Below are positions 18,070 to 22,727 of a stretch of 64,000 nt of DNA, in pieces. Position 1 is the first letter of the stretch; every line of letters starts with the position of its first letter. Where the stretch lies: positions 8,952 to 72,951 of the forward strand of contig DAHUXZ010000006.1 of the NCBI GenBank assembly GCA_027315455.1, given 5' to 3'. The translations under genes were made by a program, and so were the position numbers. The notes below the pieces were generated by a model. That model saw only the letters and a list, made by a program, of their open reading frames with translations, searched no databases and was not told the DNA's origin. This stretch comes from Thermoplasmata archaeon (lineage in GTDB: Archaea > Thermoplasmatota > Thermoplasmata > Lutacidiplasmatales > UBA184).

Positions 18070-18849
18070 CTACTCTTCGGTCCGGGAGGGGTCGCGGTCG
18101 GAAGGGGAGACCAGGGTGAGGCCGTGGTCCGTGACGCGGGCGGCGAGGGCCTGCGTCCGCTCCGGGTGGTTGCGGACCTTGCGCACGTGCAGCGTCCGCC
18201 GGTCGTCGCGCGGGGGCTCGGCGCCGTGGATGTCCACGACGAGGTCGGCCATGTCCTCGAGGAGGCCGGAGGTTCGCCGCTCGTGGATGTCGGGCTGGAT
18301 GACGAGGAGGACCTGGCCCCCCAGGTTCTGGGCATGGTGGCGCGTCTGACGGGCGAGCATCATCACGTCCGAGGGGTCGAGGACCTCGAGGAAGAAGTCG
18401 AGCGAGTCGACGACGAGCCGAAAGGAGCCGCGCATCGCGGCCAGGTCGGCGAGGATGCGGTTCGCGAGGTTGTAGGTGCGCCGGCGCAGGGGGACCGTCG
18501 GGTGGTCGGAGAGGTCCCGGTAGGTGAGCCCCGTCTCGCGCGCGCGCGACACCTCGAGGTCGCGGCGGAGGATGCGCTCGTAGTACTCGTCGGAGAGGTT
18601 GATCACCTCGAGGCCGTTCGGCGTCCACCCGAAGTCGCGGAACGCCCGCTCGACGTCGTCGGTCCGCTCGTAGGTGGAGTAGTAGTGGACCGGGTCGTGC
18701 CCGAGGCCGGCGTGCGCGAACTGTTTCGCGAGCAGGCTCACGCCGGAGCCGGAGGTGCCGCGAAGGAGTCCGAGCCAGCCGGCCGGCAGGACGTCGGAGA
18801 GCTTCGGGTCGACCTCGGGCAGGTCGAAGATCGGGAGGGCGCCGGTCAT
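18070..18849 (-). CDS. KaiC/RadA-paralogue (RecA-superfamily) protein with degenerate Walker A (no Lys)
   Basis: RecA-like core; P-loop position reads GTSGSGVS. Start ATG overlaps the upstream stop (ATGA). Confidence 0.55.
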   Translation of the reverse strand: MTGALPIFDLPEVDPKLSDVLPAGWLGLLRGTSGSGVSLLAKQFAHAGLGHDPVHYYSTYERTDDVERAFRDFGWTPNGLEVINLSDEYYERILRRDLEVSRARETGLTYRDLSDHPTVPLRRRTYNLANRILADLAAMRGSFRLVVDSLDFFLEVLDPSDVMMLARQTRHHAQNLGGQVLLVIQPDIHERRTSGLLEDMADLVVDIHGAEPPRDDRRTLHVRKVRNHPERTQALAARVTDHGLTLVSPSDRDPSRTEE

Positions 18850-19433
18850 GACCTCGCCCCGCGGCCGACGTCGATCGTCTCGTCGACGATGAGGCTCAGC
18901 ATCTGGTCGAGCGGCGACGCGGCGTCGTCGGAGACGTCGAGGACGACGGCGAGGACCTGCCGGCTCTTGAGATTGTTGAGGAGGATGTGGAAGAACTCGC
19001 TCAGGAGGTCCGGGGGATTGTGGATCGCGAGCGAGTTCACCGAGTCGACCACGACCGTCGCATGCGGGGCCGCCGTGCGCCGAAGGAGGTACTCGACCCG
19101 GAGCATGATGTCCTCGAGCATCCGCGGGCTCTCGACGTACGAGGCGTTGGGAAGCGGATTGCGGTAGTTCATCATGATGTGGCTGATCGCGTCGACGAAC
19201 GAGACGCGGTCCCGGGGGACGTCGAGCGCCTCCGCGAGCGACCAGACGAGCGACGCGGGGTTCGTCACGGAGACGTAGATCGTGTGCGCCCCGGTCTCGA
19301 TACCCACGTCCCGCAGGGTGGCGCTGAGGACGTTGAAGTACTGGTCCGCGTACTGGCGCGGGTCGAGCCGCAGGGCGACGGCGGCGCCCCCCGTGAGCGT
19401 CCGCAGACGCTCGCCAAGATCGGCCCCCCCCAC
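18846..19433 (-). CDS. KaiC/RadA-paralogue-like protein lacking Walker A
   Basis: RecA-fold-like 195-aa ORF directly abutting the upstream stop. No P-loop. Confidence 0.5.
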   Translation of the reverse strand: MGGADLGERLRTLTGGAAVALRLDPRQYADQYFNVLSATLRDVGIETGAHTIYVSVTNPASLVWSLAEALDVPRDRVSFVDAISHIMMNYRNPLPNASYVESPRMLEDIMLRVEYLLRRTAAPHATVVVDSVNSLAIHNPPDLLSEFFHILLNNLKSRQVLAVVLDVSDDAASPLDQMLSLIVDETIDVGRGARS

Positions 19434-20207
19434 CTAGCCTCCTTCCTGGTGGCCGCCTTTGAGGTGGGGCGCCATCAGCATCCCGATCGGGGTGAGCTCG
19501 ATGACGTACTGCGCGCGGGAGTGGGACGTCCCCCGCATCTTGATCACCTGCAGGACCCGGATGATGTCGCCCTGGCGCCGGGTGTTGCCGAGGAGGATGA
19601 CCCCGTCCACGATCGCTTCCTCCACCCCGTAGAGGGACAGGCGGCCCGGGCTCTGGGCGACCTCCGAGACGAGGAGGGTCGTGCAGTCGACCGCCGAGAG
19701 CGCCTGGCTCAGCTTGAGCATGAAGTCCCGGATCCGTTCCTCCTTGCGGATGCGGTAGCAGACGGAGGTCAGGGAGTCGAGGACGACCCGCTTCGCCCCG
19801 AGCTCGGTCACCAGGCCCTGGATCGTGAGGACCAGGAGGTCGACGTCCTCCGCGGTCATCTCCTCGCGGTCGAGTCCGAGGCGGTCGTAGATCACCGGGA
19901 CGTCGACGAAGACGAGGGCGCCGGAGGTCACCAGGTCGGCGCGGAAGAACTCGAACGTCGAGAGGTTCTGGATGAGCTTGTCCGAGGCCTCGGTCACCGA
20001 GAGGAACAGCGACCGCTCGCCCCGCTCCGCTCCCCGTACGAGGAACTCGAGCGTGAGGGTCGTCTTTCCGGTGCCCACGCTCCCGGAGACGAGGATCATG
20101 TTCCCGCGCGGGATCCCCCCGCCGAGGATGTCGTCGAGCCCCTGGATCCCTGTCGCGCACCGTTCGCGCCCCGGCGGCGAAACGCTCTCGGGTGCCGGGG
20201 CGTCCAT
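19434..20207 (-). CDS. KaiC-like / RadA-paralogue ATPase (intact Walker A and B)
   Basis: GIQGLDDILGGGIPRGNMILVSGSVGTGKTTLTLEFL and VVLDSL. Typical archaeal KaiC/aRadC family. Confidence 0.75.
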   Translation of the reverse strand: MDAPAPESVSPPGRERCATGIQGLDDILGGGIPRGNMILVSGSVGTGKTTLTLEFLVRGAERGERSLFLSVTEASDKLIQNLSTFEFFRADLVTSGALVFVDVPVIYDRLGLDREEMTAEDVDLLVLTIQGLVTELGAKRVVLDSLTSVCYRIRKEERIRDFMLKLSQALSAVDCTTLLVSEVAQSPGRLSLYGVEEAIVDGVILLGNTRRQGDIIRVLQVIKMRGTSHSRAQYVIELTPIGMLMAPHLKGGHQEGG

Positions 20208-20231
20208 CGAGGCGAGAGGCGACCGCCTACC

Positions 20232-22727
20232 CTAAGAGGGTTTCTCCGGCCGCGCAAGCGCGACGCGCGTTCGCACGGCGGCCCAGCGGGCCGAAGCCCA
20301 GGCGAGCTCCGCCGGGTCGACGGAGGGGCCGAGAAGGCCCGCGAGCGCCTCGCGGCGGATCGCCCATCGGCCGGCGTTCCCGTGGCCCGCGTCGTCGAAG
20401 GCCCCGGCGCGCCCGAGGCGGCTTCCCGCCTCCCGCACCGCGTCCCCCGCGCGGTCGACCTCGGCCCGCAGGTCCGACAGGGCGACCTCGAGCGTCGGGA
20501 GGTCGCTTTCGAGGAACCCCGCCCAAAGGGTGAGGAGGACCCCCCGCGCGGTCCCCGGTCCGGCCCGCTCGCCGGCCGGGGATAGGATCGGCGCGGGCGT
20601 CGGCGACGCCGGGGCGTTGGTGGTCGTCGGGCCGGCCGCCGCGGGGTCCTCCTCCTCGGGAGCGACCACGTACGGCCGCGAGGATTCCCGTGCGGCGTTA
20701 AGCGCGTCTCCCTCGGCCGCGGCCGGCGGCGGCGGGCTCGTGCGGAGCCAGTCGATCCGTCCGCCCTTTCCGATGAGGGCGAGGGCCTCGCCGCGCGGCA
20801 GCCCGAGCATCATTTCGGGCGAGAGGGAAGGGTGCCATCGGGCGAACTCGCGGGCCTCCTCGGGCGCCCCGCGGAAGACCACGAAGTCCGCCACGTTCGT
20901 GAGCGTCGCCTCCCGCACCGCCTCCGGCAGCGCCGCGAGCGCCTGCGTGGCGAGGACGAGATGGAGATTGGCGCGGCGCCCGAGGCGGAGCATCTCCGCG
21001 ACCGCGTCATGCGCGTACCACTGCGCCTCGTCGAGCAGGAGGAACGTCTTCTCCGACCCGTCCCGGCCCAGGAGCTCGGAGGCGGCGAGGGCCAGATGCA
21101 CCGAGAGCAGGTAGCGGGCCGTCGACTCGCCGACGACCGGCGCTTCCCCGAGGAAGAGGGTGATGCGGCGGCCGCCGGTCAGTTGGCGCACCGACCAGCG
21201 GGGCTCGCGGGCGCACAGGAGCTGGCGCAGGACCGTGCGGCCCGTGATCTCGAAGAGGAGGCGGCGCGCCCCGTCGACCTCTTCCGGACGCTCGAGGACC
21301 CGCTGCCGCAGCTCCTCGACCGCCGGCCGGGCCGAGGGGAAGACCGCCCCGGGTCGCTGCCGCGACGCTCCCAATAGCGCCTCCGCGTCGACGATCGTCC
21401 CGCCGGGGGTCGCCGCCGCGGCCGCCAGGGCGCGGCGTACCATCTCCTCGATCCGGGGCCCCCAGAACGGGGTGTCCGCGTAGCGCGCGGCGCGTACCCG
21501 GCGCAGGGCATCGACCAGATCTCCGAGCCCCCGCTCCGCGTTGACCGCCCCGCGGTCCGGGCCGACGGCGGCCAGGGCGTTGACGGCCACCGGCGACTCC
21601 CGGGGGGCGATGAGGACGACCCGGGACCGGGCGGCCACGGGCAGGCAGGCGAGGAGGCGAAGCCCCGTGTCGCCGACCGGGTCGAAGAGGGCCACGTTCC
21701 CGACCTGGGAGGCCGCGAGGGCGACCCGAATGAGGAGCGAGCTCTTTCCCATTCCGGTCTCGCCGACGATGGCGAGGTGCCGGCCCTGGCGCCGTTCGAG
21801 GGGCAGGGTCAACGCTTCGCCGTGGCGCGAGGTGCCGAGCGCGAGCGCGATCGCGTCGGTCGTCGGGCGCACCGGTGCGGCCACGAACTGCACGGAGGGA
21901 CCGGGAAGGGCGCCCAGCAGTTCGCTCTCCCGGAGCGGGAGATCGGCGTACGCTGATCCCAGGATCGGCCAGGGCCGGCGGAAGACGAATCCGTCGGTCC
22001 CCGGCTGCCGCGCGGCCGCCTCCGCCACCCGGACCGCGGCCGCGATGCACGAATCGGACATGGCCCGCGCCGCCTCGACGTGGATCGTCACCCGCCAGAC
22101 CGGCTCGAGGGCCCGCGCGTCGATGCGGTCGCGCAGCTCGCGCTCGGTATCGGTGAGCGGCGCCAGCCGCCCGCCGACCGGCACGACCGCGGCCTCGACC
22201 CCCGGGGGTCTTGGCCTCCGGGGGGGCGGCGCGGGGCCGGCGGGGACGGCGCTGAGGACGATCTCGGGGCCGAAGGGGAGGATGCGGAGGGCCTCGACGA
22301 GCCCGTCGGACCAGGGCGCGGGGTCGGTCGCGGGCAACGGGAGGCCGCCTCCCGTGCGCAGCGCCGCCCGACGCACAACGCGCGCCCGGGGCCGCGTGCG
22401 CCCGGGATCGACCGCACGGACCCACTGGCCGGCCTCGTAGCCCGCCAGAAGGAGCCGCCCGGCCCAGCGGGCGGAGCCCGGGTCGGGGGCCGCCAGCTCG
22501 ACCCGAGGAGCGGGGCCGGGGACCCATCGGAGCTCGAACCGGCAGCCGAGCGCGTGGCCGATGCGCAGGGCTTCCCGAAGCCGGACCTCCCGGCGCCGCA
22601 GCTCCTCGGGGGTGCGCCGAACGATGCGCGATTCGAAGCGCCAGCGGACCGGCGCGGGCGATGGGTTCGCGCGTCCAGGGCGTTGGTTTAGGCGGCCCAC
22701 AGCGCCGGCGAGACCGACCCCAACCAC
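20232..22727 (-). CDS. HerA/FtsK-superfamily (DUF87-like) ATPase with ~270-aa unknown N-terminal region
   Basis: Walker A AIVGETGMGKSSLL, Walker B FLLLDEAQW and ATQ...P..L motif of the HerA/FtsK/VirB4 clade. Confidence 0.65.
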   Translation of the reverse strand: MVGVGLAGAVGRLNQRPGRANPSPAPVRWRFESRIVRRTPEELRRREVRLREALRIGHALGCRFELRWVPGPAPRVELAAPDPGSARWAGRLLLAGYEAGQWVRAVDPGRTRPRARVVRRAALRTGGGLPLPATDPAPWSDGLVEALRILPFGPEIVLSAVPAGPAPPPRRPRPPGVEAAVVPVGGRLAPLTDTERELRDRIDARALEPVWRVTIHVEAARAMSDSCIAAAVRVAEAAARQPGTDGFVFRRPWPILGSAYADLPLRESELLGALPGPSVQFVAAPVRPTTDAIALALGTSRHGEALTLPLERRQGRHLAIVGETGMGKSSLLIRVALAASQVGNVALFDPVGDTGLRLLACLPVAARSRVVLIAPRESPVAVNALAAVGPDRGAVNAERGLGDLVDALRRVRAARYADTPFWGPRIEEMVRRALAAAAATPGGTIVDAEALLGASRQRPGAVFPSARPAVEELRQRVLERPEEVDGARRLLFEITGRTVLRQLLCAREPRWSVRQLTGGRRITLFLGEAPVVGESTARYLLSVHLALAASELLGRDGSEKTFLLLDEAQWYAHDAVAEMLRLGRRANLHLVLATQALAALPEAVREATLTNVADFVVFRGAPEEAREFARWHPSLSPEMMLGLPRGEALALIGKGGRIDWLRTSPPPPAAAEGDALNAARESSRPYVVAPEEEDPAAAGPTTTNAPASPTPAPILSPAGERAGPGTARGVLLTLWAGFLESDLPTLEVALSDLRAEVDRAGDAVREAGSRLGRAGAFDDAGHGNAGRWAIRREALAGLLGPSVDPAELAWASARWAAVRTRVALARPEKPS

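Follow-up and report, generated by a model that had tools for sequence, protein, structure and literature searches.

Four co-directional genes in the 64-kb window (the whole stretch of DNA that was analysed), from a Lutacidiplasmatales-type member of the Thermoplasmata, probably make up two neighbouring units. The first is a trio of one predicted active KaiC-family ATPase (KaiC1) and two inactivated paralogues (KaiC2 and KaiC3, 'iKaiC') behind a promoter-like element of its own; the second is a large soluble ATPase resembling TrwB and VirB4. This composition, taken together with the separate promoter, is proposed with good confidence. The full reading, in which the trio works as a hetero-oligomeric switch beside this ATPase, has in our judgement about an even chance of being correct.

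All four ORFs were read from the minus strand (Table 1), and the junctions were as the first-pass annotation had described them: a 24-nt gap between the ATPase gene and KaiC1, a stop-to-start abutment of KaiC1 and KaiC2, and an ATGA overlap of KaiC2 and KaiC3. The G+C content of the window is 74%. Since full-length orthologues exist for each gene, the arrangement recurs and the motif states are conserved, the four genes are real and not chance ORFs of G+C-rich DNA. Almost every one of the ~66 listed loci had trio junctions between −4 and +10 nt; an apparent 32-nt overlap in one of them (L041) probably reflects automatic start-codon choice.

Table 1. Features of the four-gene cluster in window coordinates
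Feature	Position	Strand	Details and basis
KaiC3, KaiC-family pseudo-ATPase	18070..18849	-	259 aa; Pfam KaiC 41.8 bits
KaiC3 degenerate P-loop GTSGSGVS (aa 31-38)	18736..18759	-	sequence and orthologues
KaiC2, inactivated KaiC-fold protein	18846..19433	-	195 aa; GTG start, AGGAGG Shine-Dalgarno upstream
KaiC1, single-domain KaiC-family ATPase, predicted active	19434..20207	-	257 aa; Pfam KaiC, PDB matches
KaiC1 P-loop GTGKTT (aa 45-50)	20058..20075	-	sequence and orthologue conservation
Promoter-like element: purine-rich stretch, then TATA-like box TCTTAGGG	20230..20246	-	sequence, conservation
Large soluble P-loop ATPase (first-pass 'HerA-like')	20232..22727	-	831 aa maximal ORF, GTG start
ATPase C-terminal winged-helix-like domain (aa 727-824)	20256..20549	-	AlphaFold2 topology
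ATPase Walker B Asp-Glu (D566, E567)	21027..21032	-	conservation
ATPase Walker A GETGMGKS (aa 322-329)	21741..21764	-	conservation
ATPase N-terminal alpha/beta domain (~aa 27-270)	21918..22649	-	AlphaFold2 secondary structure

KaiC1 matched the Pfam KaiC family with 190 bits (E 5e-56), KaiC chains in the PDB with E 1e-47 to 1e-58, and PH0186 and PH0284 with E 1e-37 to 1e-32. Its P-loop reads GSVGTGKTT in full; Walker A, the glutamate of VTE, Walker B and KMRGTSH were invariant in 72/72 orthologues. Checked against KaiC, RadA and ArlH as candidate families, the trio showed affinity to KaiC: the RadA and RadB profiles scored far below their cutoffs on KaiC1 (23.6 vs. 259 and 31 vs. 278), as did the ArlH profile on KaiC1 and KaiC3 (E 7e-11 and 3e-9; 37–42 bits vs. 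215).

KaiC3 exceeded the Pfam KaiC cutoff of 26.6 bits. In none of 60 orthologues was there a K at the site of the P-loop lysine (position 37), which was occupied by A, T, S or V. E61, the equivalent of the catalytic glutamate, was retained in 59/60, the Asp-Ser of Walker B in 59/60 (D148) and 60/60 (S149), and K224, the lysine of the K-x-R finger motif, in 60/60. KaiC2 is devoid of both the P-loop and the C-terminal Lys/Arg-finger segment, and none of its orthologues has a P-loop. It scored 20.3 bits with Pfam KaiC, below the cutoff, and 19 bits with DUF7504; among 22 orthologues, 20 matched KaiC and 17 DUF7504. Its AlphaFold2 model (pLDDT 80) reached a TM score of 0.66 to KaiC. KaiC2 groups with the iKaiC domains of the DUF7504/DUF835 type; in other proteins such domains occur as fusions with TPR/SNAP or DUF835 modules. 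Median orthologue identities to the window proteins were 74% for KaiC1, 73% for KaiC2, which is as conserved as its housekeeping neighbours, and 50% for KaiC3.

The last two ORFs thus lie inside the RecA fold, as the first-pass annotation had supposed in describing one active ATPase followed by two degenerate paralogues. Pairwise BLASTP among the three proteins gave no significant similarity; they are therefore ancient paralogues of RecA/KaiC fold and not the outcome of a recent local duplication, and the trio recurs in many genomes.

Three RecA-fold paralogues in fixed order, two of them degenerate, also recall the eukaryotic Elp4-Elp5-Elp6 ring, a tRNA-handling hetero-hexamer of such paralogues. 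KaiC1 had a weak PAXNEB (Elp4) match in Pfam (E 3e-5), the KaiC2 model matched two yeast Elp456 chains (E ~3e-6), and 5/22 KaiC2 orthologues matched Elong_Iki1 (Elp5; best E 0.0017). However, these matches are much weaker than those to KaiC and typical of cross-matches in the RecA superfamily, PAXNEB covers the P-loop region only, and no Elp3 or tRNA-modification gene was linked to the trio in any examined locus. An archaeal Elp456 counterpart is accordingly given hardly any credence.

The large ATPase is a member of the FtsK-HerA superfamily, with TrwB/VirD4, DptH and VirB4 as its closest counterparts. The label 'HerA/FtsK-like' holds at superfamily level only: the best structural matches were TrwB, DptH and VirB4, not HerA or FtsK proper, and the scores with Pfam DUF87 (20.5 vs. 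23.2), FtsK_SpoIIIE (17.9 vs. 24) and NCBIfam HerA (20.5 vs. 800) stayed below cutoff, whereas the Pfam family of the all-alpha TrwB 'DNA-binding' domain scored above it. A start at another in-frame GTG, codon 10, would shorten the protein to 822 aa; residues 1–22 are modelled with low confidence, and no N-terminal membrane anchor is apparent. The N-terminal domain, with W88 and W211 invariant, was spanned by VirB4 (TrwK) structure matches only and matched no family in a Pfam scan. G322, E323, G325, M326, G327, K328 and S329 of Walker A were invariant among 25 homologues, as was E567 of Walker B in the homologue alignment (D566 at least 90% conserved), and catalytic competence is predicted from these motifs. 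A disordered linker (aa 692–719) leads to the C-terminal domain, with the element order H-E-H-H-E-E. R33, R44, G47, G65 and W67 were invariant in the alignment of this domain (A4, own numbering); in the full-length alignment R765 was invariant and R754, G768, G786 and W788 were at least 90% conserved. As a profile search of PDB sequences with this domain returned nothing meaningful, it is called winged-helix-like from its topology alone.

The cluster is a vertically inherited chromosomal feature of Lutacidiplasmatales-type Thermoplasmata, an order of soil archaea. The four genes were adjacent in 64/67 species-representative loci and in all 57 metagenome loci that were seeded from the KaiC2 side and had enough upstream DNA; the ATPase gene usually lies 23–100 nt from KaiC1. 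They are part of a syntenic block running from a DRG GTPase gene through the ATPase, the trio, PAC2 and Methyltransf_28 to L15e, fixed among ribosome- and RNA-processing genes in over 60 species; DRG has a median identity of 75% to the window, and PAC2 one of 77%. Outside the order, eight more distant loci carry a KaiC pair or trio in the same A-B or A-B-C order with unrelated flanks, and none of the eight has the large ATPase. The trio is thus an old Thermoplasmatota operon that neighbours this ATPase only within the order, and the linkage anticipated in the first-pass annotation holds across the whole order but not beyond it. Genes with a Pilin_N domain (archaeal type IV pilin) were found at most 1.5 kb downstream of the KaiC genes in 5/8 distant loci; these represent few lineages, and three of the five share flanking synteny. 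No pilin-like gene was found in the window or in 84 related loci. An association between KaiC families and the type IV pili of archaea is known (PMC4858521).

The end of the TATA-like box lies 22 nt upstream of the KaiC1 ATG, and the promoter-like element contains the stop codon of the large ATPase (TAG, 20232–20234); in the majority of loci the final ATPase residues (often PQPS-stop) are encoded within the box as well. A box with at least 7/8 matching bases ended 21–23 nt before the KaiC1 start in 56/75 loci, compared to 11.5% of random 150-nt windows, with seed motifs drawn from the same loci that were scored. In loci with 0.6–4.5 kb inserted between the units, where the ATPase C-terminus differs, the element is still found at KaiC1; one insertion (L029) includes a membrane-protein gene on the opposite strand. 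Conservation and position point to a promoter function of the box, and because it moves with KaiC1 when genes are inserted, the trio is probably a leaderless transcription unit of its own. The single operon of four genes suggested at first is therefore doubtful, although read-through from the ATPase gene is possible.

These observations also bear on a reading in which all four genes form one operon, joining a HerA/FtsK-type translocase to a Rad51-paralogue-like hetero-ring for DNA processing or transfer, or for mediating recombination and repair. The close, co-directional spacing within the order would suit such a machine, as would the intact Walker motifs, the TrwB domain match and the winged-helix-like tail of the ATPase, and the KaiC2 model also matched RadA helicase and the XRCC3-RAD51C-RAD51D-XRCC2 complex. 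It is nevertheless unlikely, given the clear assignment of KaiC1 to KaiC over RadA and RadB, the conserved box and the insertions between the units, the distant KaiC loci without the ATPase, and two loci in which the ATPase is kept without an adjacent trio (L024, L056). Furthermore, no NurA, Mre11, Rad50 or other gene with a nuclease-family match was found among the annotated neighbours.

A defence function around a HerA-type ATPase, directed against phages or plasmids, had likewise been considered. The PADLOC model mad8 (MADS system) matched aa 294–649 of the ATPase (E 5.7e-18), HerA defence models matched it weakly, and DptH and several defence HerA complexes were among its structural neighbours. 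The other three proteins had no meaningful defence-model match, the cluster lacks a nuclease, Sir2 or methylase partner, and the conservation of KaiC1 and KaiC2 equals that of housekeeping proteins. In tblastn searches, 50,697 phage records contained no relatives, and 72,556 plasmid records yielded just three matches, all weak and to the ATPase domain. Because the locus is inherited vertically within conserved housekeeping synteny, a defence role is very improbable.

The ATPase and the trio may also be functionally unrelated, kept together by conserved gene order, with the trio acting as a regulator in its own right, for instance of genes for pilins or surface structures as in its relatives. 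This is a possible but less than probable reading. It agrees with the synteny of the whole block, the separate box, the tolerated insertions, the lack of the ATPase in all eight loci outside the order, five of which have a pilin gene downstream, and the much faster evolution of the ATPase (median identity 41%, far below KaiC1 and KaiC2). On the other hand, the ATPase stays with the trio in three loci where the DRG gene is absent and upstream synteny is broken (L003, L008, L019), the ATPase stop codon inside the KaiC1 box permits coupled regulation, and there is a precedent in ArlH-ArlI, where a KaiC-like ring acts on a hexameric FtsK-HerA-superfamily ATPase (PMC4858521). The same adjacency would be expected from mere synteny among related genomes and therefore neither proves nor excludes coupling.

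In the preferred reading of two units, translational coupling and a shared TATA-like promoter would cause the three KaiC proteins to be made together from a leaderless mRNA. Their likeliest assembly would be a mixed RecA-type ring, and the obligate hetero-oligomer suggested in the first-pass annotation is plausible; the chances of a mixed ring with a single kind of active site are about even. In such a ring ATP would be bound and hydrolysed at KaiC1 sites only, KaiC3 could donate its invariant finger-motif lysine in trans, and KaiC2 would serve purely as a structural or adaptor component. Alternatively, KaiC1 could form a homohexamer alone, with KaiC2 and KaiC3 as separate adaptors. The mixed ring would act as a KaiC-style switch of nucleotide or phosphorylation state, a type of device for which a role as signalling hub in archaea has been proposed. 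The soluble TrwB/VirB4/DptH-like ATPase, with its additional N-terminal and winged-helix-like C-terminal domains, may be the partner regulated by the ring in the manner of ArlH and ArlI; this coupling, suggested by adjacency alone, is tentative.

Compared with HerA-NurA and FtsK, the large ATPase falls below the respective family cutoffs, has no NurA neighbour, and carries an N-terminal domain that is modelled as alpha/beta and to which a HAS barrel was not assigned. DptH is part of the Dnd restriction system, and TrwB/VirD4 are coupling proteins of type IV secretion. In contrast to these and to VirB4, the ATPase has no apparent N-terminal membrane anchor, is chromosomal and vertically inherited, has the extra C-terminal domain, and is not surrounded by relaxase, other VirB or Dnd genes. 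With yeast Elp456 and the human Rad51-paralogue complexes BCDX2 and CX3, both kinds being among the fold matches of KaiC2, the trio would share the co-production of several diverged RecA-fold paralogues, some of them non-catalytic; it differs in its affinity to KaiC and not to RadA/Rad51 or Elp, and in a context without DNA-repair or tRNA genes.

Archaellum genes are reported to be absent from the order (PMC9287336). KaiC1 and KaiC3 resemble ArlH (FlaH) weakly; unlike in ArlH-ArlI of the archaellum motor, neither arlI nor arlJ nor an archaellin gene lies near the trio, and the neighbouring ATPase is TrwB/VirB4-like and not of the VirB11/PilB type. Archaeal KaiC/inactivated-KaiC ('iKaiC') signalling modules were reportedly described by Makarova, Galperin and Koonin in 2017. 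The trio is similar to these in that a single-domain KaiC-family ATPase is encoded with motif-less paralogues and relatives adjoin type IV pilin genes. The first-pass annotation knew of no such system; its kind has been described, inactivated KaiC domains being a recognised class and their combination with KaiC appearing in PMC5847659, which cites Makarova 2017, and the modules are also treated in PMC6393860. The specific arrangement of a fixed trio with a TrwB/VirB4-like ATPase was not found in the literature searched, which represented Makarova 2017 through citing papers. In contrast to the described modules, the trio keeps the order active, P-loop-less, Lys-less over deep divergence and, within one order, constantly adjoins a TrwB/VirB4-like ATPase.

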